64,000 nucleotides of DNA from an uncultured archaeon (lineage in GTDB: Archaea; Aenigmatarchaeota; Aenigmatarchaeia; QMZP01; QMZT01), in NCBI GenBank assembly GCA_964441265.1, contig CAYYKJ010000005.1, forward strand, positions 29,867 through 93,866, written 5' to 3'. The notes beneath the pieces are model-generated. The model was not told where the DNA came from. It made no database searches and saw only the letters and a list, made by a program, of their open reading frames with translations. Positions 40,301 to 63,492 of this stretch are shown piece by piece; positions within the stretch are counted from its first letter, which is position 1; every line of letters starts with the position of its first letter. The translations under genes and the position numbers were made by a program.

Positions 40301-43300
40301 AAAAGAACCAGTCCCCCTCCGAAACGCTCCCGTTGTTGTAATAGGTCCCGGAGTAGTTCATCCTCACGTCCCAGTCCCCCTCGTCCTTTCCCGTCGAGTC
40401 CCAGGAGCAGTTGTACCATCCGTCCCCCTCGTCATCCACCGGCGTGCATTCCTCCCAACTCATCCCGTCCAGGCTCACTTCGAAGGTCGCCCCAAGACCG
40501 GAAACCATCTCCCCTTCATCATCGGTGACGTTCCCCCTCAGCGTGACAATGTCCGTAACGTTGTGGTCCTCCTCGTACTCCACCATACCGAAGAGATCAC
40601 CGAACACGGTCACGTTATAAACGCTGGAGTTCTCGTCATCATAGTACTCGTCCCCCTCCGTCCCTATAATCCACTCCTGCCTCCCCACCGAATAGATCCC
40701 GGACGGATCAAAGCTGAAGTTCGCATACCCTTCCGGATCGGTCACCCCTGAGCTGTCCGGATTATACCCGGCCCCGTCAGTGGTCACCCACAGACTCACG
40801 TTAACATCACTCCCCAAGAAGGCGTCCCTGTCCGTGTCGAACACCCTCACCTTCAGGTCCGTGGAATTCGTCCCCGACCTGTTCACCTCGCTCTCGTTCC
40901 CCGCGACATACTCAATCGAGACGTTGTCCTTCCGGACATCCGCTCCCTGCGAGCCGGTATCGTCCTTCCCTCCCTCATAATCGCTCGCATTGAACTTGTA
41001 CGACCTGGACCCCACGTCATCGATGTTCCAGCCAGGATCGTGCAGAAATGACACTCTCTCATCCGTGCAGGGACAGCTGACATCCATGGAATTGACGAGT
41101 TCCCACCCGCCCCCCCTGTCATACCATAAGCTCACGTTCACCGTGTCCGGGTTGACCTCGTTCAAATCCACCGAATAGTTCCACCATTCCCCCCATCCCC
41201 CGTCCTGTTCCGTCGCTGAAGACGGGCCGCTCAGCACGGGATCGGTGGTGTTGACAGAAAACCTCCCGCCGAAGGAATCGCTCCCGTCGTTGTAATATGT
41301 CTTGCTTGTGTTGACCCTGACGTCATAAGTACCATACGTCTGGTCATGGGGGACGTCCCACGTACAATTATACCAGCCGCCCCCCTCGTCATTCACGGAG
41401 CAGCTGCCGGTTATCTCCTCCCAGCTCCCGCCGCCCGGAAGAACCTCTATCGTGTTCGAGACCCCGCTTACCATGCTGGAGTTGTCATCCGTGACGTTCC
41501 ACCTGAAAAGAACGGAATCGCTCCCGGCCCTGTAGGTCTGGCCGGATGGCTCCTGGAGGGAGGCGTTCAGTTCGCCTATGATGTTCAGGGACCCCTCTGA
41601 GCTGTTGGAATCCTTGTAATACGCTCCCCCCGATATTCCCGCCTTCCAGTTCTGGACTCCTGTGGAATAGTTGTTATCGGGCTCGAAATCCAGGGTGCAG
41701 TGTCCGGTACTGTTGGTGGTGTTTGTCCCTTCGTGTATGTAATTGGAGCCGTCCTTGGTTATCCAGAAGTGACAAGTGATATCAGGGACCGGAAAGCCCC
41801 TGTCAGTGTCGTTTACGAATGCTGTGAGGGTCATTTTCTGTGAGCCGCTCCTGTTGACCTCCCCCCCGTCACCTTCCGTCAGGGAAACCCCCGTGTCATC
41901 CTTCTCCACGGTTACCGGATAGGCAGGGGTGATGTTAGTCTCGTATTCGTCGTCTATCAGCAATCTCCAGTATTGGTTTCCCACAGCATAACGGCTCCAT
42001 GAGGATTTGACGTTCAGGTAGTTCCATCCAGAACACCCCCAGCAGGTGGTGGAGTTCATCGTACTCCATGATCCAGTCCTATTCTCCTGCACAGAGACAG
42101 TTATGTTGTCGGCCTGGTCCTGGTCGCTGACATTGATATAGAAATCCCACGTCTCTCCCCATCCCTTGTTATCGTCTCCAGACACGTCCTTGTACTGAGG
42201 CACGTAGTTTTTCAGGATGAATTCCTGAAGCGAGGAATGGCTCGTCTGTCCCAGCGAATTGTTGGCGTACCAATAATAGCTCATGTTCTGGTGGGACTGG
42301 GTGTAGTTTCCCTGACCTATCGTTATATAATACTCGTCGCTGGCGTTCTGGGCTCCCGTATAATTCATCACGTGCGTTCCGTTGTGGAATTCAAGGGCGG
42401 TCCAGTTGACACCGTAGTCGCTGGTCATGGTCACGTTTATCTGGACGTCCTGGACTATGTTTGGGGGGTCGGGGTCTATCTTATGCCCGGAGAAGCTGAC
42501 CCCCACTATCTCCAGGTCCTTCACTGTCTCCTCCGAGGTGGTGTGACCCTCCACCGTATACGTCGTGTTGACCAGTATGGGATACGTTCCCAGTTCGGAA
42601 GGCGCCTGGAAAGTGATGTTGTAGTCCCCGTCAGCGTCGGTCTCGAAAACGTAATCCTCATTCCCTGTTTCGGTGACATCAGGCTCGGCCCCGAAGAGGG
42701 ATATCCTGTAATTGTCCATAAGTGAATCCGAGGCACTTTCTCCCCAGAGAGAGGCATTATATGGGCCTCCCGGAAGCGAGACCGAATCGTTGCTTACCTT
42801 GGCCTCATCTATGTCCGTGTAAGATTCGGCATATGTATCGTTTCTTAACATGGTCATGTTATGCCAGACGAAGGTGTCTGAGTTAAAGGTTTCATTTGAT
42901 GCAATCGAAAGATAGTTGTATAACCTTATCCGGTTGTAATTGCCTGACCAGTATTGGGCGGTTGAAGCCAGGAACGTTGTATTATCCTTGTAAACACACG
43001 GACCCACTTCGTAAAAATCATAATACTTGAGTTCCGCCGTTATGTTTACGTAGTTGTAGTTTTCCGTGAAATTACTAACGACCCATTTATAATTCTGGTT
43101 GGAGCCGCCAAGACTCATATTACCCTCGCTGCAGTCCAGATTACTTGTACAGTCCTCACCTTCACCCCAGTCTGAAGCGTAATCGTCCTTTATGCACTTC
43201 CACCCGTCGCAGTCGTTGTCGCTGAAATCGTCATAGAATACGTAGCAGGTATCACCCTCGTATTTCATGCAGACTTCCCCGTAGTCCGGATCCCCTGACA

Positions 43301-46300
43301 GTGGGTTGCCGTAGTACATGGTCACGTTGAATATCGAATCTTCCGAGAGGTTGGCCTTGAACCATATCCTGGTTGAGGAGTCGTTGCACGCGGTTTGGTT
43401 GGACCACTCCAGCTCCTCGCCGTCCTGGAAGATCCTGAGGTCGGAGCAGCTGGCGTTGAGCTTCCCCTGGGAAACGAGGGTCTCGGTGTCTATGTCCGCG
43501 TAAACCGGGAACTGGTCTATCCCCTGCCCTCCGGTGTTGTTTATGCTCAGGTTCTCTCTGTATGCCCAGTTGTAGTCCCACCACCCCTCTGGATGGGAGT
43601 CACCTATCGAATATATGTCCACCATCCCGTTTATCAGGGTGCCGTTCATGTACATGTTGAAGGCGTGGTTCGCGAGGTCGGTTCCGTTGGTGAGATTTAT
43701 GTGTCCCCAGGCGGAGACGTATTCATGCTGGACCGTGGTCTCGTTTGGCTCCAGTGTTTCGGAAATTAGTATGCCGGGATAAACTAGGAGATTCGTTGAA
43801 TTTTTTCCTGATACCTCATCATCATTAACGGTCACCGTATATATTCCGTAATCTCCGGAGGAAATGTTCGGTGCCAGGAAGGATATGTTGTAGTATCCCG
43901 TTGCGTTGCTCATGTCTGATCCGTAAAACGTGTCGTTCAGGTAAAGGCTTATGTTCTCGTTTTCGATAGGCGAACCAGTTGAGGAATTGACGACCTGACC
44001 GTAAACGCTTATGTTTTTTCCCGAAAAGGTTTCATTCTCCGACAGCTCTTCTGAAATATTGATTTTCGTTTCAATGTCAGTTTCAGTGCTGTTGACCCAT
44101 GAAGACCATTCCGTCCCGTTGTATGCCCTGCAGCTGAACTTCCATGATTGCCAGCTGGTGATGTAAGAGCTGTCTACCATATCCAAAAAATTGCTCTGGT
44201 CGTTCGTCCAGAAGGAGCTGTATTCGCTGGAGTCCGTGGTCACGCTGGGATCGCTCACATTATGATTGCCCGTGTCGCCGTCCCCGATCTGGCCGTCGCC
44301 GCCATGTCCCCAGCACAAAACCCTGCCGTCGCTTTCGCGGATTCCGCATGTATGATAATAGCCGGCGGCAACGCTCGTGTATTCGCTCGAATCCGTGGTA
44401 ACGTTAGGATCTCCCGCCCCGTGGATGCTTGTGTTCCCATCGCCCAGGCGCCCGTATGTCCCGTTACCCCAGCACAAGACTCTGGAGTCATTGGCCCTTA
44501 TCCCGCATGTATGGTAGTTCCCCGCAGAAACGCCCAGGTATTCGCTGTCGTCCGTGGTCACGTTTGGATTGCCCACGCTGTGGTCGCCGACGACACCGTC
44601 CCCGAGTTGGCCGTGGTCACCGAACCCCCAGCACAAAACCCTGGAATCATTAGCACGAATACCGCAGGTATGTTGAAATCCGTTAGAGACGCTAATATAG
44701 GCGCTGTCGTCCGTTGTCAGGGTGAAATACGGTACGTTGTGCTGGTCAGTTCTTCCGTCCCCGATCTGTCCATTGTTCCCGCGTCCGCAACAGAGCACTC
44801 TGGAATCGTTGGCACGAACGCCACATGTATGCACTCCTCCCGCACTCACGCTCAGGTAAGCACTGTCATCCATGGTCAAGTTCGGGCTGCCCACGTCATG
44901 GATATCAACATTCCCGTCACCCAATCTCCCCCCGTATCCGTATCCCCAGCACAGCACCCTCGAATCGTTCGCCCTGATGCCGCATGTATGGGCATCCCCC
45001 GTCGAAATGCTGAGATATGCGCTCTCATCAGTGGTCAGGTTCGGATGTCCCACGCTGTGGGCGTTGGTGTCCCCGTCACCCAGCTGACCTTCGTTACCCA
45101 GACCCCAGCACAACACCCTGGAATCGTTGGCACGAACGCCACATGTATGCACTCCTCCCGCACTCACGCTCAGGTAAGCACTCGTATCCATGGTTACATT
45201 GGGAGAACCCGCCTCGTGGGCGTTGGTGTCCCCGTCCCCGAGTCTTCCCTGGTTGCCTAACCCCCAACACAAAACCCTGGAATCGTTCGCCCTTATGCCG
45301 CATGAATGTTCATCACCTGCGCTGATGCTCCCTTTCTTGAAGGCCGTCCCGTTCACCCACTCGACTGAATCATTATACCATTTGTATTCGAACTTCCGTA
45401 TCTCGGCGTCCTCGTCCCCGGTCGCATTGCAGTACCCTCTCAGGTTGTCGTTGGGGTTGGCCGTGTCGGGCTTTATGGTCACGTCGTTTATGGAGACGGA
45501 GAGGATATCGTATTCATCCCCGCCCTCGTCCTGGCTCTGGTTTGTGCCTTCTTCCACCGGCTGCATGGTTGTTATGTTGTTGACCGCATTCCAGGCGTCT
45601 ATCCTTGAGATGTTTGTCGTATAGGTCGAATTGACCTGATAGGGTACCGGTTTCCCGGTGGTCTTGAGCATATGCTCCACCTCTCCGGGCAGGAGGGGTT
45701 CGTTCTCCAGAAGCAGTGCCGAAACCCCCGAAACGAAGGGGACGCTCATGCTGGTCCCGCTCCTTTTCGAGTATTCCCCTCCCATGGTCCTTACCCGGAT
45801 GTCCTCCCCGGGGGCGAGGAGATCTGTCCAGTGATTCACGCTGGAGAAGGAGGCGATTTCGTCATCCTTGGTGGATGCCGCCACGCTTATCACCCCGGAG
45901 CCGCAGGCGGGAGACTTTATTTTCCGGGAGCCGTCGTTCCCGGTCGCCGCTATGACCAGAGTCCCATTGTCGACGAGCTGGTTGCAGTATTCAGCCACCG
46001 GGTTGGAGTCGCAGTAGCCGTCGTAGCTTCCGGAACCTATGGAGAGCGAGATTACATCCGCACCCTCCTGTTCGCAGTATTCCAGACCTTCAAGCACGTC
46101 GGATTCGTATCCTTTCCCGTCCCTGTCGATGACCTTGGCGACGACAAGGTCTATACCCGGTGCGACCGAATCCAGTATGCTGGCCACCTCAGTGCCGTGT
46201 CCCTGGTCGTCCCATGGGTCGTTGTCATCGTTCACGAAGTCGTGGCCTTGGGAGAAGGAATGGATATACATATAGTTGATTCCGGTGTCCAGGAAGCAGA

Positions 46301-46916
46301 CCTTCGTCCCGCTCCCGTTCAGTCCGAGACCATGCACGTCATCGGCGTTAATAAGTTCCATCGATCCGGATGTGAGCATGGAAACTGGCCTGTCGATATG
46401 GATGCTCTCTATATCCGGATTCTCCGCCAGCTCCAGGAGCCCCTCTTTCGAGACCTCCGCCGACAGGAATTTCCTGCCTTCAGCTTTCAGGTCGAAGTCC
46501 TCTTTCCGGGTATCTTTGGTTTCGAAGCTTTTCTCCCCCCTGAATTTGACTATCAGTCTGGTCTTCTCATTTTTGAGGACGGATTCCATGGCTTCTTTCC
46601 CGAGCATGGTGATGGACCTTATGCGGGATTCCACATTCATGGAGGGCAGGGTCTTTTGGATTGCTGTCGAGTTGGTTGAGTTCGGGGTGAGGTTTATGGA
46701 TTCATTGCCTGTCATATTGCCGGAAAGATTGAGAACACCGATTCCGGTCAGTTCTCCTGTTATGGAGGTGTTGTTAACGGCGATGTCGTATGCCATGACG
46801 GCTGCAGGTATGAGAAATATCATGAAAATTGCCAGTAACTGAGCCTGGCTTTTCTTCTTCTTGCCCAGACCCCCTTGAAAAACAGGCAATAAGTTTAACA
46901 GTATACTGTCCATCAA
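31386..46916 (-). CDS. giant (5176 aa) membrane-spanning multidomain surface protein: subtilase, RCC1 propeller, lectin/Ig-like repeats, TM and a cytoplasmic HerA/DUF87-like ATPase
   Basis: A single uninterrupted 15.5-kb ORF. The track start is TTG 46916 and the first ATG is 46913. TATATAAT lies 26-33 nt upstream. Domain motifs are listed under the sub-features. Confidence 0.85.
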   Translation of the reverse strand: MMDSILLNLLPVFQGGLGKKKKSQAQLLAIFMIFLIPAAVMAYDIAVNNTSITGELTGIGVLNLSGNMTGNESINLTPNSTNSTAIQKTLPSMNVESRIRSITMLGKEAMESVLKNEKTRLIVKFRGEKSFETKDTRKEDFDLKAEGRKFLSAEVSKEGLLELAENPDIESIHIDRPVSMLTSGSMELINADDVHGLGLNGSGTKVCFLDTGINYMYIHSFSQGHDFVNDDNDPWDDQGHGTEVASILDSVAPGIDLVVAKVIDRDGKGYESDVLEGLEYCEQEGADVISLSIGSGSYDGYCDSNPVAEYCNQLVDNGTLVIAATGNDGSRKIKSPACGSGVISVAASTKDDEIASFSSVNHWTDLLAPGEDIRVRTMGGEYSKRSGTSMSVPFVSGVSALLLENEPLLPGEVEHMLKTTGKPVPYQVNSTYTTNISRIDAWNAVNNITTMQPVEEGTNQSQDEGGDEYDILSVSINDVTIKPDTANPNDNLRGYCNATGDEDAEIRKFEYKWYNDSVEWVNGTAFKKGSISAGDEHSCGIRANDSRVLCWGLGNQGRLGDGDTNAHEAGSPNVTMDTSAYLSVSAGGVHTCGVRANDSRVLCWGLGNEGQLGDGDTNAHSVGHPNLTTDESAYLSISTGDAHTCGIRANDSRVLCWGYGYGGRLGDGNVDIHDVGSPNLTMDDSAYLSVSAGGVHTCGVRANDSRVLCCGRGNNGQIGDGRTDQHNVPYFTLTTDDSAYISVSNGFQHTCGIRANDSRVLCWGFGDHGQLGDGVVGDHSVGNPNVTTDDSEYLGVSAGNYHTCGIRANDSRVLCWGNGTYGRLGDGNTSIHGAGDPNVTTDSSEYTSVAAGYYHTCGIRESDGRVLCWGHGGDGQIGDGDTGNHNVSDPSVTTDSSEYSSFWTNDQSNFLDMVDSSYITSWQSWKFSCRAYNGTEWSSWVNSTETDIETKINISEELSENETFSGKNISVYGQVVNSSTGSPIENENISLYLNDTFYGSDMSNATGYYNISFLAPNISSGDYGIYTVTVNDDEVSGKNSTNLLVYPGILISETLEPNETTVQHEYVSAWGHINLTNGTDLANHAFNMYMNGTLINGMVDIYSIGDSHPEGWWDYNWAYRENLSINNTGGQGIDQFPVYADIDTETLVSQGKLNASCSDLRIFQDGEELEWSNQTACNDSSTRIWFKANLSEDSIFNVTMYYGNPLSGDPDYGEVCMKYEGDTCYVFYDDFSDNDCDGWKCIKDDYASDWGEGEDCTSNLDCSEGNMSLGGSNQNYKWVVSNFTENYNYVNITAELKYYDFYEVGPCVYKDNTTFLASTAQYWSGNYNRIRLYNYLSIASNETFNSDTFVWHNMTMLRNDTYAESYTDIDEAKVSNDSVSLPGGPYNASLWGESASDSLMDNYRISLFGAEPDVTETGNEDYVFETDADGDYNITFQAPSELGTYPILVNTTYTVEGHTTSEETVKDLEIVGVSFSGHKIDPDPPNIVQDVQINVTMTSDYGVNWTALEFHNGTHVMNYTGAQNASDEYYITIGQGNYTQSHQNMSYYWYANNSLGQTSHSSLQEFILKNYVPQYKDVSGDDNKGWGETWDFYINVSDQDQADNITVSVQENRTGSWSTMNSTTCWGCSGWNYLNVKSSWSRYAVGNQYWRLLIDDEYETNITPAYPVTVEKDDTGVSLTEGDGGEVNRSGSQKMTLTAFVNDTDRGFPVPDITCHFWITKDGSNYIHEGTNTTNSTGHCTLDFEPDNNYSTGVQNWKAGISGGAYYKDSNSSEGSLNIIGELNASLQEPSGQTYRAGSDSVLFRWNVTDDNSSMVSGVSNTIEVLPGGGSWEEITGSCSVNDEGGGWYNCTWDVPHDQTYGTYDVRVNTSKTYYNDGSDSFGGRFSVNTTDPVLSGPSSATEQDGGWGEWWNYSVDLNEVNPDTVNVSLWYDRGGGWELVNSMDVSCPCTDERVSFLHDPGWNIDDVGSRSYKFNASDYEGGKDDTGSQGADVRKDNVSIEYVAGNESEVNRSGTNSTDLKVRVFDTDRDAFLGSDVNVSLWVTTDGAGYNPDSSGVTDPEGYANFSFDPSGIYSVGRQEWIIGTEGDEYYDDENSSVYNVTVFGDLFGMVEYEEDHNVTDIVTLRGNVTDDEGEMVSGLGATFEVSLDGMSWEECTPVDDEGDGWYNCSWDSTGKDEGDWDVRMNYSGTYYNNGSVSEGDWFFLDNLEPYNSSPLLVDPPVDGWGYNFTYNTTVSDPENDSVTCTLWSNAGGGWVLKGRMTAQAPYICSLHADDYEWDYQGDYLFKFRLNDTFNEVNTTTENGTLEKDDIELEVTDCSNCHAPRDQYTLTLISYNITDLDRGGLITHQIECRLNVTRDFSNYDSFSNTTSPGYCRRYFNPGCNSTDGDGEYFLGQQDFMGEIPENSYYKTATITSQNVNIWGQIYHQIQIPDGEDYTEGENVPIRGRATDDCGNTIQTLDGKVFYYLENEADNVTQCTPVTNDGGGWYNCTWNSSGGKMGNYNITMNSTDHNLRYGGEYKKVDAFFLQTNDTSADLLIIPEENIVDGINRSSNRTFEIQVTLNNTGFSKLYNASINNHTMPENWTISPSIHDCGDILPGENCTENFTITVINGTTEGIYYVNLTGNWTQGNLVNKSAANQTMVNVTPNYKLEISESVVYGNASSGTTTTIGNFTLVAFGSGNLSDVEIECLSGACLNMPPDPVVYFFPDPVSSLPGGNTMKININATSQSDDKEEEGIVYILRANATGTACSPANECWETVTLNLSIVNDPPVLSNAQVTEQVDGWGAEYNYSVQVFDNNDDDINITLWVNPGGTWMRNETKVVSSGTMVNWTISPFSFSDTEETRNYLFEYNDLNSTGDKKHNLTNTTTFSGPYVQKDNVSIEYVAGNESEVNRSGTNSTDLKVRVFDTDRDAFLGSDVNVSLWVTTDGAGYNPDSSGVTDPEGYANFSFDPSGIYSVGRQEWIIGTEGDEYYDDENSSVYNVTVFGDLFGMVEYEEDHNVTDIVTLRGNVTDDEGEMVSGLGATFEVSLDGMSWEECTPVDDEGDGWYNCSWDSTGKDEGDWDVRMNYSGTYYNNGSVSEGDWFFLDNLEPGWSSLSVDPYQEGWGSTFTYNVSITDPENDNVTCELWSNASGIWVMKNSTTQQAPYTCSMEAKDYNGTDLYAGDDNETYNYRFRVNDSFNQMNTSEGTGKLEKDNITLVVTACDDCEAPRDGTKKTLIEYSINDTDRGTLAIYDIACYINVTLTGGGSPDSFSNTSSEGYCRRYFNPDCSYYVGHQDWYGKVSESKYYDYAEITSQLDVVGQFRHKIETPDGENYLEGENITIRGNTTDDCDNTVDGLGNVEFHLINENGINVSQCTPVNDEGSGWYNCTWDSWNQETGKYNITMNTTNLPSPPSTPVYYNGTYNKKDALVLEATQTFADLLLIPIYKETDNVTKYLNQTFNLTAVLNNTGEAYLYNATINRSYFPGWWNVTPVSHNCGMVETGNNCTRNFTVLVVNGTTSGIYYVGFKANWTNMIGTENSAVNETEVNVTENYDLEIREDEIAGGAFIGRTTTIGNFTIDADCSAELSDIRFTNKSGFCANPLDERKITLIPKNVSNLTGGTHIVIDINVTVPLGYPETTGPCTIQANATNSTCSPAGECWDELIINVTTVNEPPQLSDANVSNSTDGWGAEYNYSVFVYDHNGDDVNVTLWINNSGTWEKNETKLVGAGSTPYWTIRPFNSSDIGETMGFMFEYKDDYNNASNTSEFTGPSIERDDLLIEITGNSSTTLSRNAGEKALIEVMVTDSDRGIPLEGGRNCTFWSTRDGISYTTESENTTDSGGYCRYYLDSINCTYSVYYQYWEAGLGDSLYKEYNSSQGNFTVAGWITHNITRPAGDYHYESQSILFRGNATDECSDPATPADVSFFPESNGSEFSCSPANDEGNGWYNCSWDSTGMPAGWYDLKMNTTDSEYYNGNGTSTSNAFYLQNQTISPAFTTMPSHYWTNNVTANYSTTFNISLNLTNTGQGFLYSSSVNHTYFPPGWEIVPGLQGCGDVWAGENCTRSYSVTIPNGTQPANYTINFTAYWTNPDSSPGSATNSTHITVASPTMINITSPTSSDKAVDVLPGDRVQITANVTHRLSPVSDGVDFDIRLDEEDCALESSSYIGPFKLWYLECTAPNLTDAEYHNLTINTTNSFDGTVANDTETDAVYYKDTTPPYNVNVTSESVTEGGTVEVLAYLTDKEYVSNVSMNLTHPNGSVSVRWLQNQTPETNSTYWAVNLSGLSIGDHDYVLYARDKNGNLRNITWWFAVYPSDMVTINGTILDMEGQPVLSDFFMYRDNRSLSPDYLLNSFSTNSSGNYSRDVYRRVYDIEWKINSSMDAVGMFGINVTENMTDPVGFDDIALKYISIPLTRVILKAFAVNSTMNFSRANISMNFTGTGYEHNFIDVIRVYQCRDWDWTENGCNSTWINRGGSVDVDTETVTATVDNFSAFVAAEEVVCGNEICENVYGESSDNCPEDCWAPGPGDEEETPGGGYTGGVSAGAVCGNDRCETGENYQNCPEDCPKEEEPYAIDTDVIDIELLPGESRLYPITIENRQEDASDVDMEVTGTIWEFTQLQSRSFSIDEQSAKTVKVKFFAPMSAPPGVYNGELLVTVDDTPNTIPVTLRIVTEKEALMDVKVEVLTKILGQNGTVRYRLSLFNLGYKKKFDVHLTHNIRDVNTNKLLAYKEEEMALETTLSMVKNFPLDEINIYPGKFYIEVVASYENKTASSADIFEVVEPFWTMDKIYMLIAAIAIAVALIVGWKGSRWYSKWKLRRRRYLFPVDYKKLPKGPIYMGKIAETGTKAWLDPDDLTTHILSAGATGAGKSVSAMVTVEECLKLKIPVVVFDPTGQWTGFVKRCTDRKMLDRYDEFGMKETDAMPFKGMIFEVTDPKVKIKFKEFMNPSEITVFMLNKLKPGEFDQAVQNIVQTIFETDWEESPKLRLLVIFDEVHRLLEKYGGSGGYVALERGCREFRKWGIGMIMLSQVLADFKEAIKGNVLTEFQLHTKGLGDIDRVKKKYGEEYSNRITKQEVGVGMVQNPKYNRGRPYFVAFRPLLHSPHKIPEEELEKYKKFAKELKEMEREIRSLEKKKVDTTDIKLELKLAKDKLKTGAFRMTEIYLDSLRGSLKKHSRKKGKKKKKRGKKK
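31700..32480 (-). other. cytoplasmic P-loop ATPase domain (HerA/DUF87-like) of the giant protein
   Basis: It has the Walker A motif GATGAGKS (32346-32369), the Walker B motif LLVIFDEVHRLL (around 31975-31990) and RKWGIGMIMLSQ. It lies C-terminal to the TM helix. Confidence 0.75.
32538..32590 (-). other. single transmembrane helix separating the extracellular and cytoplasmic parts of the giant protein
   Basis: YMLIAAIAIAVALIVGW is followed by KGSRWYSKWKLRRRR, which follows the positive-inside rule. Confidence 0.65.
37633..38280 (-). repeat. copy A of a 648-bp apparently identical intragenic duplication
   Basis: It matches 40285..40932 at an offset of exactly 2652 nt. Antisense ORF translations from the track are identical, and both boundaries were checked base by base. 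Confidence 0.85.
40285..40932 (-). repeat. copy B of a 648-bp apparently identical intragenic duplication
   Basis: See copy A. It encodes KDNVSIEYVAGNESEVNRSG...GDWFFLDNLEP (216 aa), which appears twice in the protein. Confidence 0.85.
43260..43570 (-). other. DUF2341/concanavalin-like lectin module of the giant protein
   Basis: It contains YRENLSINNTGGQGIDQFPVYADIDTETLVSQGKLNASCSDLRIFQDGEELEWS...IWFKANL...MYYGNP. Confidence 0.5.
44210..45330 (-). other. seven RCC1-like propeller repeats of the giant protein
   Basis: There are seven ~51-aa repeats of H(T/S)CG(I/V)RANDSRVLCWG.G..G(Q/R)(L/I)GDG. Confidence 0.8.
45590..46400 (-). other. subtilisin-like (S8) serine protease domain of the giant protein
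   Basis: The catalytic triad motifs are in subtilase order and spacing: D210 in CFLDTG (46287-46289), H240 in GHGTEVAS (46197-46199) and S389 in SGTSMSVP (45750-45752). Confidence 0.85.
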
Positions 46917-54511: not shown

Positions 54512-55393
54512 ATGACAACAAAGACAGCAGAGAAAATCAGTATGCCAAGCTTCAGGTACAGGGGATTTGACGTCCCTGCTTTAGACCTTTCCACATCGCT
54601 GATTGATGATTTGAAAACTTCAGAGCCCGCATACAAGCTTGCCCCGAAATCCGCTCCGCTTTCATGGAAAGTCGGCCTCTACATGGTCGGCAGGGACCTG
54701 GAAATAGGGTCCGAAGAAGCCGAAGCGCTTCCAGGGCCAGTGAAGGAAGCCGGGAGGATGGTTTATTCCGATTGCCAGGAAAGGAAAGCCGAAGGTACTT
54801 GGCACAAGGACGGAGTCCTGTTCCTCCCAAAGAGCGAGAAGCCGAAGGGCATGTGGCCGATGCCGGATGGCTATGCCTTGGCAAAATACTCAATGGGCAT
54901 CGCTGGTTTCACTGAAAAGGACGGTGTATGGCAACCTGATCCAGAGCATGACACGATAGAGGAATATATGTGGCTGCCACCCGGAGATGGAAGATTCGTT
55001 GCGCCTCCTGATAGCGGTGAGGGTGCATATCACCCATTGGGTCCTCCGAGATTTACGGTCGGGGACAGGAAGGAAGCTGTCAAGAGATGGGTCAATGCGG
55101 GACTTACTGAGCAGCAGGCGGGCAAGGAGCTTTCAATATTCTACAGGGCGGATTCAGGCACGCGTGCCGTTATCTCGTGGTCTGACGGCGACGACGGCCC
55201 GTTGTGCGTTAACCTCTACGGCGAGCCCCGGGGCAGGGGCTCGAGTATCGGCTCGTTCGCCGCGAGTAGGTCTGCCGAGCGGAGCGAGGCTCCGAAGAAT
55301 TCGGGCTACAGGCTGCTCACATCAGACGAATTCAGGTCATTCGAGAACGACAGGAAAGCGCTTGAAACCATCAGGAAGGCCGTCAACAAATAA
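54512..55393 (+). CDS. DGR variable (target) protein, no signal peptide evident
   Basis: A 293-aa ORF whose C-terminal region (ISWSDGDDGPLCVNLYGEPRGRGSSIGSFAASRS) is encoded by the VR. Confidence 0.8.
   Translation: MTTKTAEKISMPSFRYRGFDVPALDLSTSLIDDLKTSEPAYKLAPKSAPLSWKVGLYMVGRDLEIGSEEAEALPGPVKEAGRMVYSDCQERKAEGTWHKDGVLFLPKSEKPKGMWPMPDGYALAKYSMGIAGFTEKDGVWQPDPEHDTIEEYMWLPPGDGRFVAPPDSGEGAYHPLGPPRFTVGDRKEAVKRWVNAGLTEQQAGKELSIFYRADSGTRAVISWSDGDDGPLCVNLYGEPRGRGSSIGSFAASRSAERSEAPKNSGYRLLTSDEFRSFENDRKALETIRKAVNK
55161..55269 (+). repeat. DGR variable repeat (VR)
   Basis: It aligns to TR 55644-55815 with 14 substitutions, all opposite TR adenines, and two gaps of 30 and 33 nt. Confidence 0.85.
55280..55294 (+). 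promoter_or_regulatory. GC-rich hairpin 11 nt downstream of the VR (candidate DGR target-recognition element)
   Basis: CGGAGC-GAG-GCTCCG forms a 6-bp stem with a 3-nt loop. Confidence 0.45.
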
Positions 55394-55441: not shown

Positions 55442-55643
55442 TGTCCCGGACAGCTGTGCATCGGTGCAGGCACTGTCCAAGGACTTGCCTGGAGCATGCT
55501 TGAACTACATGCCCGGCTGTAGCGCGTGAGAAGAGATCCGATCCGTAATTGCTCGCGCCGTGAAATTCAGCAGCGATAGCCGAAAAATGCGTTAAAGCTG
55601 CGGTGCGGCCCAATGGGGCCATTGGGCAGCCGGGCTACATAAG

Positions 55644-55815
55644 CGCGTGCCGTTAACTCGTGGTCTGACGACAACAACGGCCCGTTGTGCGTTAATGTCG
55701 GAAGAGCATCTTCCAGCAGCGCAAACCTCAACAACGAGCCCCGGAACAGGAAAGACGGCAAGCGAACGCTTGTCTTTGCCCTGAACTCGAATATCGGCTC
55801 GTTCGCCGCGAATAG
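55644..55815 (+). repeat. DGR template repeat (TR)
   Basis: It is the A-rich counterpart of the VR, with AAC/AAT codons in the VR reading frame. It contains two extra segments, about 55696-55725 and 55754-55786. Confidence 0.85.
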
Positions 55816-55858: not shown

Positions 55859-56386
55859 ATGTCTTACGGTTTGATTTTCCAGAAAACGTACGATCTTGTC
55901 AAATGGGTCTATCCGACCGTCAACAGGTTTCCAAGGAAGCAGCGGCTAATACTGTCGCAGAGGATAGAAGTGACCACTATCAGGATTCTTGAACTCGTTA
56001 TCGACATAAGCCGGCGGGACACCGAAACGACCAGGAGAAAAATACTCCACGAACTTCGCAAGCTCCAGATCCTGCTCAGGTTGTCAAAGGACCTCTCATA
56101 CCTAAGCTTCAGGAAATACGAGCACGCAAGCTCATTGCTGGACGAGATCTCGCGCATTCTTGATAATCGGGGGGGGGGGGGCACCGCATGGATTGCGGAA
56201 ATTTATACGATGAGCTGTGCTCTTTCAGGAATCTTGAGCTTGCCTTCAGGAAAGCCAGGAAAAACAAAAGATGCAGGAAAGACGTGCAGGACTTTGAGTT
56301 CAATCTGGAGAAGAATCTGCTGCGACTCAAGAGCGAGCTTGAGTCCCTTTCTTACAGACCAAAGCCTCTCAAGCAATTTGTTATAA
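55859..56386 (+). CDS. avd: Avd (accessory variability determinant, four-helix bundle); the 3' end is uncertain because of the G13 tract at 56169-56181
   Basis: MSYGLIFQKTYDLVKWVYPTVNRFPRKQRLILSQRIE...LRLSKDLSYLSFRKYEHASSLLDEISRIL is typical of Avd over about 105 aa. After the G-run, the frame as given continues 66 codons into the RT gene. Confidence 0.65.
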   Translation: MSYGLIFQKTYDLVKWVYPTVNRFPRKQRLILSQRIEVTTIRILELVIDISRRDTETTRRKILHELRKLQILLRLSKDLSYLSFRKYEHASSLLDEISRILDNRGGGGTAWIAEIYTMSCALSGILSLPSGKPGKTKDAGKTCRTLSSIWRRICCDSRASLSPFLTDQSLSSNLL

Positions 56387-57264: not shown

Positions 57265-57300
57265 ATAGATGCATTGCTAATAACATTCCAAGGTGGGTTA

Positions 57301-57948
57301 ATGATCAATTCTGTCGTATTCGACATGGACGGTGTCCTTCTGGACAGCATCCCCCAGCACAGGGAGGCCTTTGAGGAGGTCTTCAGGGAGAACGGTATTG
57401 AGATATCCAAAGAGGATTTCGTGGAGGTCAGCGGGATGACCACCCCCGACATCATAAGGAACATCGCCAAAAAGCACGGGAAGGAAGTGGACGTAGAGAG
57501 GATGTCGGAGGAGAAGGACAGGAAGGCCATCGAGAAGATATCGGACGACATGAAGATTTTTGACGGGGTCCATGACGTTATCGAGAACCTGAAGAAGAGC
57601 GGATTCAGGATAGGCTTCGCCTCTTCCAGCGACAGGTCCGTGATAGACCATTTCATGGAGAAGAGCGGCCTCGGGGGCATGTTCGATTCCGTCGTAGCTG
57701 GAATAGATCTCCACAGGTCAAAGCCCGACCCGGAGGTTTTTCTGGTTGCCGCCGAAAGGATGGGTTCGGAGCCGGAGGAGTGCGCCGTGGTGGAGGACGC
57801 GAGGAACGGGATAATAGCCGCCAGAAGGGCGGGAATGGTCTGCATAGGGGTGAGGAGTGAATACATCAGGCCGGAGGACCTGGAGAAGGCCGATATCGTG
57901 GTGGATTCCATAAAGGAGATAACCCCCGAATTTCTCGGAAAGCTTTAA
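57301..57948 (+). CDS. HAD hydrolase, beta-phosphoglucomutase-like (paralog 1)
   Basis: It contains VVFDMDGVLLDS...SSS...KPDPEVF...VEDARNGIIAARRAGM. The start was moved to ATG 57301. Confidence 0.8.
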   Translation: MINSVVFDMDGVLLDSIPQHREAFEEVFRENGIEISKEDFVEVSGMTTPDIIRNIAKKHGKEVDVERMSEEKDRKAIEKISDDMKIFDGVHDVIENLKKSGFRIGFASSSDRSVIDHFMEKSGLGGMFDSVVAGIDLHRSKPDPEVFLVAAERMGSEPEECAVVEDARNGIIAARRAGMVCIGVRSEYIRPEDLEKADIVVDSIKEITPEFLGKL

Positions 57949-58000
57949 ATAGGCGGACTCATTGTTAATTGTTTCATCTATCGTGTTGAGAAGTGGTTGT

Positions 58001-58657
58001 ATGATAAATACGGTAATATTCGACATGGACGGGGTGCTCATCGACAGCGTTCCCCATCATTACGAGGTCTTCAGGGACTTCATGAAGGAACACGGGGTGG
58101 AGATAGACATGGACGATTTCAGGGAATTCAACGGGACCACCACCAAGGAAGTGATAGAATATCTGTCCCGGAAGCACGCGAAGGACCTGGACGTCCACGA
58201 ACTCTCCGCAGAGAAGGAGAGGAGGACCTGGAAGAGGATCGCGGAAGAGGCGGATATTTTCGACGGCGTTCACAGCCTGATAGAGGTGCTGAAATACAGC
58301 GGGTTCAGGGTCGCCCTGGCCACCTCGACCGAGAGGGAGCACGCAGAACACTTCTTCAGGATGAGCGGCCTGAAGGACAGGTTCGATTCCATAGTCACAA
58401 AGGATGACGTCCACAGGTCAAAGCCCGACCCGGAGATATTCAGTCTCGCCGCCAAAAGGGCGGGGTCGAGGCCGGAGGAATGCGTGGTCATAGAGGACTC
58501 CAAGAACGGGATTTTGGCCGCCCGCAGGGCCGGCATGAAGTGCATAGGGATAAAGAGCGATTTCGCCAAGGGCGAGCATCTGGAGATGGCCGACCTGCTG
58601 GTGGATTCCATGAAGGATATAACCCTCGATAAAATCAGGCGCATGAGGGATTCATAA
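58001..58657 (+). CDS. HAD hydrolase, beta-phosphoglucomutase-like (paralog 2)
   Basis: It contains VIFDMDGVLIDS...KPDPEIF...IEDSKNGILAARRAGM. The start was moved to ATG 58001. Confidence 0.8.
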   Translation: MINTVIFDMDGVLIDSVPHHYEVFRDFMKEHGVEIDMDDFREFNGTTTKEVIEYLSRKHAKDLDVHELSAEKERRTWKRIAEEADIFDGVHSLIEVLKYSGFRVALATSTEREHAEHFFRMSGLKDRFDSIVTKDDVHRSKPDPEIFSLAAKRAGSRPEECVVIEDSKNGILAARRAGMKCIGIKSDFAKGEHLEMADLLVDSMKDITLDKIRRMRDS

Positions 58658-59690: not shown

Positions 59691-60962
59691 ATGGATTACG
59701 TTGATCTCAAGTACAAACCGAGCAGGGACGAGATAATCGCAGAGTTCCGCATGGAGCCGGAGGGAATCACCTTCAGGAAGGCCTGCAATGAGGTGGCCGC
59801 GGAGTCCTCAATAGGGACCTGGACCAAGGTTTCCACCATGAGTCCCTCGATAGCAAAGAAGCTGAAGCCGCACGTTTTCAATATTGATGAGAAGGAGAAG
59901 ACTTTCAAGGTTGCCTATCCGGTGGGGCTTTTCGAGCACGGGAGCATTCCCCAGCTGATGAGCTCCATCGGAGGGAACATATTCGGAATGAAGATCCTTA
60001 AGTCGCTGAGACTGGAGGACATACAATTCCCGGAGAATTACGTCCGGGGCTTCAGGGGCCCCGCTTTCGGGATAGAAGGTGTCAGGAAACGCCTGAGGAT
60101 ATGGGGACGTCCCCTCCTGGGCACCATAATAAAGCCGAAGGTGGGCCTGACACCCAGGCAGATGGCGGGGATAGCTCATGATGTCGCTGTCGGGGGTCTG
60201 GATTTCGTGAAGGATGACGAGAACCTCACCTCCATGAAATATTGCAGGTTCGAGAACCGCGTCCCCCTGATACTGGAGGCCTTGGACAAGGCAGAGGAGG
60301 AGACCGGCAGGAGGATCGGATATTCCCCCAACATAACTGGTCCCGTCGATGTGATGGAAGAGAGGGCATATTACGCCAAGAAGCACGGTAGCAGGTACGT
60401 GATGGTAGACGTGCTGACCACGGGCTGGTCAGGACTCCAGTATATGAGAAATCTGGACCTCGGCATGATAATACATGCCCACCGGGCCGGGCACGCCGCC
60501 TTCACGAGGAACCCGGAGCACGGAATCTCCATGCTCACGATAGCCAAGCTGTGCAGGCTCATAGGCGTGGACCAGATACACGTGGGGACTGCCCACGTGG
60601 GGAAGATGTCCGGGACGGCAGACGAGACATGCGAGATAGAAGACGAGATTGAGAGCAAGTTCATCACGGAGAAGGGCGGGGAGCACATACTCGAGCAGTT
60701 CTGGTACAAGATAAAGCCCACCCTGGCTGTCGCTTCGGGGGGACTCCATCCGGGAATGATACCCAAGCTCCTGGAGAGAATGGGATCCAACATAGTGATG
60801 CAGTTCGGGGGAGGATGCCACGGCCATCCCAAAGGACCGAAGAAGGGAGCGATGGCGATCCGTCAGGCGATGGAGGCGGCGAGGGATGATATCCCGCTCC
60901 CGGAGAAGGCCAGAGAAAACAAAGAGCTGAAACAGGCGATTGAGAAATGGGGTCCGGCCTGA
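59691..60962 (+). CDS. rbcL: ribulose-1,5-bisphosphate carboxylase large subunit, form III-like
   Basis: It has GTIIKPKVGL, GGLDFVKDDENL with the carbamylated lysine motif, HAHRAGHAAF and GGGCHGHP. No small-subunit gene is nearby. Confidence 0.9.
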   Translation: MDYVDLKYKPSRDEIIAEFRMEPEGITFRKACNEVAAESSIGTWTKVSTMSPSIAKKLKPHVFNIDEKEKTFKVAYPVGLFEHGSIPQLMSSIGGNIFGMKILKSLRLEDIQFPENYVRGFRGPAFGIEGVRKRLRIWGRPLLGTIIKPKVGLTPRQMAGIAHDVAVGGLDFVKDDENLTSMKYCRFENRVPLILEALDKAEEETGRRIGYSPNITGPVDVMEERAYYAKKHGSRYVMVDVLTTGWSGLQYMRNLDLGMIIHAHRAGHAAFTRNPEHGISMLTIAKLCRLIGVDQIHVGTAHVGKMSGTADETCEIEDEIESKFITEKGGEHILEQFWYKIKPTLAVASGGLHPGMIPKLLERMGSNIVMQFGGGCHGHPKGPKKGAMAIRQAMEAARDDIPLPEKARENKELKQAIEKWGPA

Positions 60963-61874
60963 TCACCCGAAGAATTTTCCCGCCGTTTCCAGAAACAGGT
61001 TCCATCTTTCCGTGTCGAACGCCTTGGGGTTTTCTTTTATGATCATTTCCGCCGTCTTTTTGTCCAGTCCCAGCGGATTCCTGCCAGTTATGTAACCCAG
61101 GTCCCTGCACATCACCTTCCCGGGTGTGCCCGAACAGTCGCAGAATTCGGTCATTCGCTTCATGACGTTCAGGTACCTTATCCTGCTTTCCGGGAAGAGG
61201 GTTGATACGGTCTTTGCCGCTTTGGCCAGGGCTTCTAGTGACTTTTCCACCCCGTCCTCCGGATGCCACATCGCTCCGGTGGGGCACTCCAGGACGCATC
61301 TCCGGCAGCCGCTGCAGTGCTCGTAATCTATGACCATCTTGCCTTCCGGCCCCCGGAATATCAGATCCTTCGGGCAGACCTCCGTGCAGGAACCGCAGGA
61401 GGTGCATTTCTTTTCGTCATATCTTGGCTGTGTATGTCGGTGTATATCCTTTTTGCCCTCCCTCGTCACGCAGCCCATCCCGAGGTTCTTCAGCGCGCCC
61501 GCGAATCCGGTGAGTATGTGGCCGGTTGCATGGGAAAGCACCAGCAGGGAATCGGCGTCTGCGAGTCTTTTGGGTATTTTTATCCCGTCCTTCTCGATAA
61601 ACGGCGTGTCTCCCGCGATCACCGGGGAGAATTCCCCGTATCCGTTCTTCCTGGCTATTTCCAGATATCCATCCTTCGTGTTCCTCCTGCTCCTGTAGAG
61701 TACGGTTGTGTCGAAAAGGAACGGCCTGCTGCCCTCGGACTCCAGCTTCTCGAGAACCGCCCTGACGTCCTTCACCGGAACAGGGGCTCCCCCTTTCTCT
61801 TCTCCGAGGTGCAGTTTGACCGCAACGCTTCCGGAAACATCAAACCGGGCGTCCGTAATGTTGTCGTAAAGCAT
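60963..61874 (-). CDS. DUF362-domain protein with 2x[4Fe-4S] ferredoxin insert
   Basis: It has CTSCGSCTEVCP and CSGCRRCVLECP cluster motifs within a DUF362-like frame. Confidence 0.7.
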   Translation of the reverse strand: MLYDNITDARFDVSGSVAVKLHLGEEKGGAPVPVKDVRAVLEKLESEGSRPFLFDTTVLYRSRRNTKDGYLEIARKNGYGEFSPVIAGDTPFIEKDGIKIPKRLADADSLLVLSHATGHILTGFAGALKNLGMGCVTREGKKDIHRHTQPRYDEKKCTSCGSCTEVCPKDLIFRGPEGKMVIDYEHCSGCRRCVLECPTGAMWHPEDGVEKSLEALAKAAKTVSTLFPESRIRYLNVMKRMTEFCDCSGTPGKVMCRDLGYITGRNPLGLDKKTAEMIIKENPKAFDTERWNLFLETAGKFFG

Positions 61875-61950
61875 GTTTTATCCTCTTTTCTCGGTAACTA
61901 ATTAAAGTATTCCCTGACCAAATAATAACATTGAGTGTTTTGGGGTTTAC

Positions 61951-63492
61951 ATGAAGCTCAAGGTAAGACTGCTCCCGCTGGACGCCGAGAAGCCCATAGT
62001 GGTTCTGAACAAGGATGATGCCGAGGAGATAGACGTGAGGCCGCTGGAGAGGGTCAGGATAAAGCACAACAAGCATACCTTCGTCGCCATTGTGAACACG
62101 ACCAAGAGGATGGTGGGCCAGGGGGAGATCGGGCTATATGAGGACATAATAGAGGACAACAGGATAAGGAGTTCCCAGACCGTCGAAGTCGAGGCGGCCG
62201 AGGCGCCCAGCTCCCTGTCTTTCATAAGGAAGAAGATAGAGGGCATGGTCCTCTCCAAAAAGGAGATCGAGAGCATAATAAAGGACACGGTTGAAAACAA
62301 CCTTTCCGACATCGAGATTGCCTCCTTCGTGACATCTCTCTACAACCACGGGATGACCATGAACGAGACTGCGAATCTCTCCATGGCCATGACCAAGACG
62401 GGAGACGTGCTGAAGCTCGGGAAGAAGGAGGTATACGACAAGCACAGCATAGGGGGCGTCCCGGGGGACAAGACCTCCATACTCACGGTTCCGGTGGTGG
62501 CCGCCGGGGGGCTCACCATACCCAAGACATCCTCCCGCGCGATAACCTCGCCCGCGGGCACGGCGGACAGGTTCGAGTGCATAGCCCCGGTGGAACTGGA
62601 CCTCGGGGAGATAAAGCGGGTCGTTAAGAAGACCAACGGCTGCCTGGTCTGGGGCGGTGCGGTCGACCTCGCCCCCGCCGATGACATGTTCATAAAGATA
62701 GAGTATCCCCTCTCCATAGACCCCTTCCTTCTGCCCTCCGTGATGTCCAAGAAGAGGGCCGTGGGCGCCAAATACCTGGTGGTGGACATACCCACCGGGG
62801 ACGAGGCCAAGATAAACACGAGCGAGGACTTCGAGAACCTCGCGGACAAGTTCGTCACCCTCGGAAAAAAGCTGGGCATAAAGGCCAACGCGATCTCCAC
62901 CTATGCCGACCAGCCGGTGGGTTACGGGATAGGACCTGCTCTGGAGGCCAGGGAGGCCCTGGCGACCATAAAGAAGGGACATGGTCCCCCGGACCTGGTG
63001 GACAAGGTGGCCACCCTCGCAGGGGTGCTGTTCTCCTTCTCCGGAGCGAAGGACGGGAAGTCACATGCGATGAGATTGCTCAGGTCGGGTAAGGCCTACA
63101 GGAAGCTCCGGGAGATAATAGAGGCCCAGGGAGGGGATCCGGGGATCGAGCCCTCCGACATTTCGGTGGGAAAAAGGAAGGCGTCCTTCCTCTCCAAGAA
63201 GAGCGGTAAGGTGCTCTGGATACACAACAAGGCGGTCGATGTCGTTGCCAGGGCGGCCGGCGCCCCCAAATACAAAGAAGCGGGCGTGTTGCTCAGGAAG
63301 AAGATCGGCGACAGGGTGAGGAAGGGGGAGAAGCTCTTCGAGATATACGCCAGGAACACCTCCAAGCTGAACAGTGCCCTGAAGATTTCGGAGAAGATGG
63401 AGCTGATGCGGGTGGGTAAGAAATCCACAGTCGCCCTGGAGAAATTCCCGAGCGGCGGGGAAGCGGAGAGGACGTTCATACTGGAGAGATGA
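61951..63492 (+). CDS. deoA: AMP phosphorylase (archaeal thymidine-phosphorylase family with N-terminal extension)
   Basis: A 513-aa protein with the N-terminal MKLKVRLLPLDAEKPIVVLNKDDAEEIDV extension, HSIGGVPGDKTS and TSSRAITSPAGTAD motifs. Confidence 0.85.
   Translation: MKLKVRLLPLDAEKPIVVLNKDDAEEIDVRPLERVRIKHNKHTFVAIVNTTKRMVGQGEIGLYEDIIEDNRIRSSQTVEVEAAEAPSSLSFIRKKIEGMVLSKKEIESIIKDTVENNLSDIEIASFVTSLYNHGMTMNETANLSMAMTKTGDVLKLGKKEVYDKHSIGGVPGDKTSILTVPVVAAGGLTIPKTSSRAITSPAGTADRFECIAPVELDLGEIKRVVKKTNGCLVWGGAVDLAPADDMFIKIEYPLSIDPFLLPSVMSKKRAVGAKYLVVDIPTGDEAKINTSEDFENLADKFVTLGKKLGIKANAISTYADQPVGYGIGPALEAREALATIKKGHGPPDLVDKVATLAGVLFSFSGAKDGKSHAMRLLRSGKAYRKLREIIEAQGGDPGIEPSDISVGKRKASFLSKKSGKVLWIHNKAVDVVARAAGAPKYKEAGVLLRKKIGDRVRKGEKLFEIYARNTSKLNSALKISEKMELMRVGKKSTVALEKFPSGGEAERTFILER

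Follow-up and report, generated by a model that had tools for sequence, protein, structure and literature searches.

How does a template repeat (TR) of 172 nt give rise to a variable repeat (VR) of 109 nt, when the two repeats of a diversity-generating retroelement (DGR) are expected to be of equal length? The question is raised by a complete DGR on the + strand of a 64-kb stretch of contig CAYYKJ010000005.1, from an uncultured archaeon of the Aenigmatarchaeota. This stretch is called the window below, and coordinates given without a locus name are positions in it. By gapped alignment, the TR corresponded to the 109-nt VR with two additional TR-only segments, one of 30 and one of 33 nt. When these were excised, TR and VR were colinear over 109 nt, and 13 of 13 mismatches fell at TR adenines (13 of its 26 A) with no other substitutions, indicating that they were a genuine DGR TR/VR pair. 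We propose that both segments are probably archaeal introns of the bulge-helix-bulge (BHB) type, in its relaxed HBh′ form, which would be removed by a host endonuclease and ligase before mutagenic reverse transcription.

Template repeats with extra segments

An initial annotation, made from the sequence alone, had described a TR 63 nt longer than the VR, with two hairpin-forming inserts. This was borne out, and the hairpins GGAAGA-GCA-TCTTCC (55700–55714) and CAAGCG-AA-CGCTTG (55759–55772) lay exactly where it had placed them. The insert junctions were ambiguous owing to flanking A/GAA repeats, and the approximate insert coordinates of the annotation (55696–55725 and 55754–55786) fell within this range of ambiguity. 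Sense-strand folds were more stable than those of shuffled sequences for both inserts (z = −4.05 for 55679–55740 and z = −2.57 for 55741–55792). No second VR-like copy was found on either strand of the 64-kb window.

The annotation had also suggested a comparison with related DGRs. A total of 160 loci encoding related reverse transcriptases (RTs) were fetched, together with nine obtained via close RT and target homologues, and TR/VR pairs were assigned by a seeded, flank-restricted and A-tolerant gapped alignment, which yielded a confident pair at 88 loci. In the curated set, TR-only insertions were present in 36 of these 88 loci from DPANN archaea (named after Diapherotrites, Parvarchaeota, Aenigmarchaeota, Nanoarchaeota, Nanohaloarchaea), with one to three insertions per TR; before curation, 37 loci had one (26 loci), two (9) or three (2). 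All 15 loci whose RT was at least 58% identical to that of the window carried insertions. The closest RT relatives (60–68% identity) were DPANN archaeal, and the named hits were Aenigmarchaeota; the relatives were DGR RTs lying beside TR/VR pairs, all of them from DPANN archaea.

The extra DNA was always on the TR side, and none was found inside the VR core of any surveyed DGR. At two loci (L015 and L077) one TR was accompanied by two VRs, both of which lacked the identical segment with identical junctions. Insert lengths ranged from 17 to 44 nt. As the annotation had noted for lengths and frame, the lengths of both window inserts were divisible by three, and neither contained an in-frame stop; as a general rule this did not hold, 17 of 46 inserts in relatives not being multiples of three. 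Small TR/VR indels of 3–6 nt, of the kind ascribed to slippage, also occurred in the surveyed set and were a separate phenomenon.

Insert positions were conserved. Homologues of insert 1, each of 30 nt, were found at four loci (L165, L161, L162 and L166) with compensatory changes in two helices, H and h′, described below. At the site of insert 2, the helix CAGG/CCTG, a bulge AA↓A and a 3′ junction AA↓C or AA↓T (↓, junction) were common to eight loci (L001, L002, L003, L081, L087, L161, L164 and L165), and L163 had the variant CAGG/CCAG with three of the four pairs. L165 carried both inserts at the sites found in the window. L005, from the nanoarchaeote AAA011-G17, contained a BHB-type insert of 18 nt, which lay 16 nt short of the TR end; L074 originates from AAA011-G17 too.

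Fold and junction register of the inserts

The inserts shared a common plan. Reading 5′ to 3′, four exon nucleotides (H5) were followed by three unpaired nucleotides, mostly AAA, an immediate hairpin (h′), a four-nucleotide segment (H3) complementary to H5 (together forming helix H), two further nucleotides and the 3′ junction. The 5′ junction lay 2 nt after H5. H5 was kept in the exon and H3 was removed with the insert, indicating a staggered cut, the hallmark of BHB introns, as opposed to a stem-base deletion. In the BHB motif, both cuts are made after the second bulge nucleotide.

In insert 1, H was formed by GCGT (55689–55692) and GCGC (55719–55722), with the bulge UA↓A and a 3′ junction after AA at 55723–55724 (AA↓A). 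Its h′ paired 55696–55705 with 55709–55718 (10 bp, one C·A mismatch). From the outside inwards, the structure comprised a 6-bp outer helix (55683–55688 with 55731–55736), an 8-nt 3′ loop, the 4-bp H, the bulge UAA and h′, and the minimum-free-energy fold and RNAalifold agreed on it. In insert 2, H was formed by CAGG (55747–55750) and CCTG (55780–55783), with the bulge AA↓A and a 3′ junction after AA at 55784–55785 (AA↓C), and the hairpin paired 55757–55763 with 55768–55774. There a single closing pair was followed by an internal loop, and the hairpin did not abut the bulge, either in the window or in L165. A 3-nt 3′ bulge closed by an outer exon–exon helix, as in the strict hBHBh′ form, was not found in either window insert and was rare in the survey, and therefore the fold fits the relaxed HBh′ class only.

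The register of the junctions was examined over all VR-compatible placements, with a null in which the 5′ and 3′ sides were taken from different insertions (1000 permutations). The symmetric BHB register, with a perfect 4-bp helix ending 2 nt short of each junction, was found in 37 of 44 insertions (null mean 6.4, maximum 13), and asymmetric offsets fitted 0–10 insertions. Of these 37 insertions with a perfect H, 33 had an h′ of at least 3 bp that abutted the 3-nt bulge. In the relatives, H was fully paired (4/4) in 40 of 53 insertions and had three of four pairs in a further seven.

Covariation was counted in Python over the whole survey, and a pair-counting tool was applied to the gap-free insert-1 homologues only. 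Over eight positions of H and h′ in 46 introns, 93.5% were standard pairs, as compared with 50% (maximum 57%) for shuffled partners and 32–44% for slid registers; 24 distinct H helices were observed. The first h′ pair was formed in 45 of the 46, and the first intron nucleotide was A in the same proportion. Among the five insert-1 homologues (the window, L165, L161, L162 and L166), H was 100% paired and two of its four pairs were compensatory (GCGT/GCGC, GCTT/AAGC, GTGT/GCAT), while h′ showed four compensatory pairs (e.g. tgtcgg/ccagca versus taccag/ctggta). The covariation score of this set was 0.291 against 0.169 after shuffling, a value reached by 1 of 500 shuffles, and RNAalifold independently yielded the same consensus. 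G·U pairs (22) outnumbered A·C mismatches (7), indicating that the structure is on the sense strand, i.e. in RNA. A loose BHB pattern (4 bp plus 3 bp, 14–55 nt) was unfit for finding retained introns and was rejected, with many chance hits in colinear TRs.

A tRNA gene provided a further junction. On an Aenigmarchaeota contig carrying a close relative of the DGR (L164), a 104-nt tRNA was detected with Rfam at 1057–1160, 1.2 kb upstream of the DGR. ARAGORN recognized it as tRNA-Gln(CUG) only once a 31-nt insert in the T arm, a non-canonical position, was removed. This insert had H CCCA/TGGG and junctions GG↓A and AA↓T, and its relaxed layout was that of the TR inserts. Its junction was unambiguous, confirming for this lineage the rule that cuts lie 2 nt into the bulge. 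The intron mode of ARAGORN gave 10 intron calls, which were unverified and were not used as evidence. Relaxed HBh′ introns need tRNA-splicing endonucleases (EndAs) of broad specificity, and DPANN EndAs with specific loop insertions go with heavy disruption of tRNA genes (PMC5829648).

A proposed spliced template and its rivals

Under the proposed splicing, the locus would be transcribed as one RNA containing the RT-16 domain (an Rfam motif 5′ of the TR), exon 1, intron 1, exon 2, intron 2 and exon 3. In each insert, four nucleotides of the upstream exon would pair with the last four paired nucleotides of the insert, leaving a 3-nt bulge on the 5′ strand followed by the intron hairpin. The host EndA would then cut 2 nt past the helix on each strand (predicted cuts 55694/55695, 55724/55725, 55752/55753 and 55785/55786), and an RtcB-type ligase would ligate the exons, giving a template of 109 nt that would be colinear with the VR and rebuilding an AAC codon at each junction. 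Avd and RT would copy this spliced RNA with adenine mutagenesis, and the cDNA would replace the VR. Cleavage by EndA, ligation and this order of events are what we infer from sequence and structure. An artificial precedent exists: a td group I intron placed in the TR of a Bordetella phage was spliced, and the spliced RNA was the template (PMC5703328).

The spliced TR would read RAVNSWSDDNNGPLCVNLNNEPRNRNSNIGSFAAN, in which each join restores an AAC codon. The predicted exon–exon joins, with TR-type adenines, are GTGCGTTA↓ACCTCAACAACGAG and GGAACAGGAA↓CTCGAATATCGG. The VR differs at these positions (e.g. the junction-2 codon is AAC in the TR and GGC in the VR), and spliced TR RNA could be told from VR mRNA by its adenines.

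Removal of the inserts is probably efficient and not obligatory. At L136, which derives from Hainich groundwater, one TR (with a 17-nt insert, H CTCG/CGAG) was found with two VRs in tandem target genes (688–772, 1479–1582 and 2389–2491 of that locus). One VR lacked the insert; the other kept it as an in-frame 18 nt adding about six residues. The insert-retaining VR had A-to-N changes within the retained segment, and 18 A mismatches plus two others over 104 nt.

Several observations weigh against splicing of the template. The L136 VR with its mutagenized insert indicates that unspliced RNA is also reverse-transcribed and homed. The 3′ bulge is non-canonical, being an 8-nt loop in insert 1, and in the minimum-free-energy fold both bulges of insert 2 are small internal loops, with a 2×3 loop in place of the 3′ bulge. 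The outer helix is weak: 24 of 46 introns had one of 4 bp or longer, where shuffling gave 13.1 ± 2.6; it was present in about half of the surveyed introns, usually flanking 1×3 or 2×4 loops, and showed no compensatory change in the insert-1 set. A-rich repeats blur the junctions by 1–4 nt, and the offsets (2,2) and (3,3) fitted nearly equally (37 versus 36 insertions). Insert length was a multiple of three in 29 of 46 cases where ~15 were expected (a count that ignores kinship), which is unpredicted for an intron that is never translated; an in-frame stop was absent in 26 of the 28 in-frame inserts checked. Finally, EndA and RtcB were not identified in the window, where only 10 other large open reading frames (ORFs) were scanned. 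The excess of in-frame, mostly stop-free lengths suggests that retention is tolerated.

The main rival, which we regard as unlikely, is that RT with Avd jumps the folded element during cDNA synthesis, the AA/GAA repeats at the bulges acting as donor and acceptor and the RNA staying uncleaved. Short direct repeats do flank the junctions (AA...AA for intron 1, GAA...GAA for intron 2), the inserts fold into stable hairpins, and the facultative removal at L136 fits a probabilistic jump. Such a jump, however, should lose both strands of a stem or neither, whereas here the covarying 4-bp helix consistently retained one strand and lost the other, with equal offsets. The geometry is that of an archaeal endonuclease substrate and matches the tRNA intron at L164, and the junctions were identical where two VRs share a TR (L015 and L077). 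The microhomology that a jump would use consists of adenines, the very bases that the DGR RT miscopies. In favour of a jump, slippage of RT has been invoked for small TR/VR indels beside AAC (Wu et al. 2018, PMC5758913); against it, in that survey of 372 DGRs (246 core and 126 from the candidate phyla radiation and DPANN), TR/VR length differences occurred in only ~7% and were attributed to slippage at AAC.

It is still less probable, and in our view very doubtful, that the cDNA keeps the inserts and loses them at integration, by loop-out and repair to the recipient length, the hairpins having another role such as RT/Avd binding. Conserved structured inserts near the RT-16 domain would suit such a role, and the insert acquired by one L136 VR shows that insert-containing cDNA exists. 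Loss at integration leaves unexplained why, on both strands, the boundaries lie 2 nt beyond a 4-bp helix that covaries, and the sequence transfer on both sides of each insert, including the rebuilt codons, would need three exchange tracts of 28–51 nt. Largely refuted, and the least probable of these alternatives, is the idea that the true partner of the TR is a longer VR elsewhere in the genome and that the present VR is a decayed copy with two deletions. In its favour, both window inserts can be read in frame without a stop, L136 has a longer, insert-retaining VR beside a short one, and the comparison covers a 64-kb window of the genome. Against it, the VR is undecayed, all of its differences being at TR adenines; 36 of 88 relatives show the same arrangement, and their insert lengths are frequently indivisible by three; and a longer VR was absent from the window, as were the extra residues from 28 of 28 aligned target homologues.

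The initial annotation had listed several of these options. Two deletions in the VR are contradicted by the A-only differences, by the recurrence in relatives and by the shared absence of the segment from both VRs at L015 and L077. A second, longer VR was found neither in the window nor among the 28 target homologues, and has a precedent in L136; if present elsewhere, it would not make the present VR a decayed copy. Its suggestion that the hairpins are functional RNA elements within the TR agrees with the conserved, covarying BHB-intron geometry. Self-splicing ribozymes and mobile-element insertions were also considered and rejected: 17–44 nt is too short, the insert ends are reverse-complementary to exon sequence and not to each other, nor are they direct target-site duplications.

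Archaeal BHB introns are known in pre-tRNA, pre-rRNA and a few pre-mRNAs, and their relaxed HBh′ and hBH forms are cut by broad-specificity EndA (PMC5829648). Like them, the TR inserts occur in an archaeal host, are short (17–44 nt here), number up to three per RNA and have a 4-bp helix between exon and intron 3′ end; on the 5′ strand a 3-nt bulge leads into an intron helix, and both junctions lie 2 nt beyond the 4-bp helix. They differ in that the RNA holding these putative introns is a retroelement template whose spliced product would be read by RT and not used as RNA. In addition, their outer helix is weak, and the 3′ bulge mostly takes the form of an enlarged or asymmetric loop. With the canonical DGR of Bordetella phage BPP-1 and the archaeal DGRs of AAA011-G17 and ANMV-1 (PMC4372165), the present element shares an RT with IGxxxSQ and YxDD, Avd, a TR beside the RT, a target gene with a 3′-terminal VR, A-only mismatches and a hairpin after the VR. 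In contrast to those elements, its TR is interrupted and 63 nt longer than the VR, with an RT-16 domain 5′ of the TR. Paul et al. (2015; PMC4372165) treated TR and VR of Nanoarchaeota DGRs as colinear and did not mention interruptions.

The td-tagged TR resembles the proposed system in that an intron in the TR is removed as RNA and the spliced RNA templates A-mutagenic cDNA; the td intron, however, is artificial, self-splicing, large and bacterial, whereas the inserts here occur naturally, are tiny, presumably depend on protein and are conserved in many archaeal DGRs. Slippage indels likewise make TR and VR differ in length, with junctions beside AA(C), but here the extra DNA was always in the TR, measured 17–44 nt, had a covarying BHB-like fold and was conserved in position. 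The initial annotation had supposed the arrangement to be undescribed, and literature searches agreed: no work combining DGRs with BHB motifs, splicing endonuclease or RtcB was found in the literature collection searched. BHB-type introns in a DGR template thus appear to be new, as far as can be told.

If correct, this would be the first natural retroelement template that needs host splicing before reverse transcription, and would give the archaeal splicing endonuclease a new class of substrates in addition to tRNA, rRNA and a few mRNAs. Splicing would also account, in a concrete and testable way, for TR/VR length differences previously attributed to RT slippage. The interruptions may prevent homing or recombination between TR DNA and the VR, couple diversification to host RNA processing and provide occasional length variants. 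On balance, we lean towards a general form of the proposal, in which many DPANN DGR templates would hold endonuclease-spliced BHB introns: the host tRNA-splicing machinery would license and could regulate diversification, in-frame retention would add length isoforms (alternative splicing written into DNA by retrohoming), and TR DNA would be shielded from homing and recombination. The single TR templating both types of VR at L136, together with the excess of in-frame lengths, suggests an extra layer of programmed protein diversity. DGR finders that rely on colinear repeats will truncate or miss interrupted TRs and misplace the 3′ end (initiation of mutagenic homing site, IMH*) in a large share of DPANN elements, e.g. 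that of AAA011-G17.

The DGR locus and its neighbourhood

The locus was arranged in the order target gene with VR, RT-16 motif, TR, Avd, G13 tract and RT, as listed in Table 1. The translated RT contained IGNLTSQ and YVDD, the motifs of the DGR clade ([I/L/V]GxxxSQ and YxDD), and the accessory protein Avd (PF22296) was present.

Table 1. Features of the DGR locus in the window
Feature	Position	Strand	Basis or remark
DGR target gene, 293 aa, VR near C-terminus	54512–55393	+	ORF
VR, 109 nt	55161–55269	+	Colinear with TR minus inserts; 13 mismatches, all at TR adenines
Hairpin CGGAGC-GAG-GCTCCG, within target ORF, 11 nt 3′ of VR	55280–55294	+	Read from sequence
RT-16 RNA motif (Rfam RF03019)	55465–55643	+	50.4 bits; end abuts TR start exactly
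TR, 172 nt	55644–55815	+	Gapped alignment to VR; homology stops at TAG 55813–55815
TR exon 1, 51 nt, including intron-1 H5 GCGT 55689–55692 and bulge nucleotides UA	55644–55694	+	
TR insert 1, putative BHB-type intron, 30 nt	55695–55724	+	BHB register
TR exon 2, 28 nt, including intron-2 H5 CAGG 55747–55750 and bulge AA	55725–55752	+	
TR insert 2, putative BHB-type intron, 33 nt	55753–55785	+	BHB register
TR exon 3, 30 nt	55786–55815	+	
Avd coding region; frame continues to 56386	55859–56181	+	Pfam bAvd PF22296, E = 8e-17
G13 homopolymer, Avd/RT junction	56169–56181		
DGR reverse transcriptase, 358 aa	56188–57264	+	Pfam RVT_1, E = 1e-21; IGNLTSQ, YVDD

The target protein matched no Pfam family and had no sequence match in the PDB. 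It had 37 homologues of 253–299 aa, whose hypervariable columns coincided with the AAC codons of the TR. The VR segment was of equal length in all 28 that were aligned, among which no isoform of +10 or +11 aa and no extra residues at either insert site were found. Three target homologues of 56–60% identity (L167, L168 and L169) lay on contigs without an adjacent TR, Avd or RT, and two of them had an integrase or unrelated genes next to them; such copies may have been orphaned or may serve as remote targets. Hairpins with trinucleotide loops occur inside target genes of Nanoarchaeota DGRs (PMC4372165), and the hairpin 3′ of the VR resembles them; by analogy it may have a similar function.

The score of the RT-16 motif in the window was borderline, the gathering threshold being 50 bits. 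Of 20 relatives tested, 18 had the motif directly 5′ of their TR (51–97 bits), with and without TR inserts alike. Weinberg et al. (2017) listed the motifs RT-1 to RT-19 and gave RT-16 no function; it is probably a 5′ structured domain of the DGR RNA.

A tract of G8–G14 at the Avd/RT junction was present in the window and at ten other loci (L001, L002, L081, L082, L083, L092 and L161–L164), and encodes a GGG(G) linker in fused Avd-RT proteins. In the window, the G13 tract left the Avd and RT frames off by +1G or −2G, with an ATG a few codons into the RT frame. In-frame Avd-RT fusions were found only in L081, L164 and L057, and the remaining relatives need a +1 or +2 shift. The tract could be an error in assembling the homopolymer or a site of phase variation, or it could set the ratio of Avd to Avd-RT through programmed frameshifting or transcriptional slippage.

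By its gene content (e.g. Cdc48, RFC, CysRS and form III RuBisCO beside an AMP-phosphorylase-like gene), the window is a cellular archaeal chromosome. The form III-like RuBisCO large subunit gene and the nearby AMP-phosphorylase-like gene of glycosyltransferase family 3 (59691–63492) are part of an archaeal nucleotide-salvage module. Directly 3′ of the RT were tandem HAD-hydrolase paralogues (57274–57948 and 57962–58657), ~75% identical over 220 nt and ~68% over 637 nt. On the − strand, a single ORF of 5176 aa (31386–46916) contained several internal repeat families, including six tandem units of 159 nt (44302–45308) and an exact 300-nt duplicate at 37633 and 40285; its product is probably a giant surface protein.

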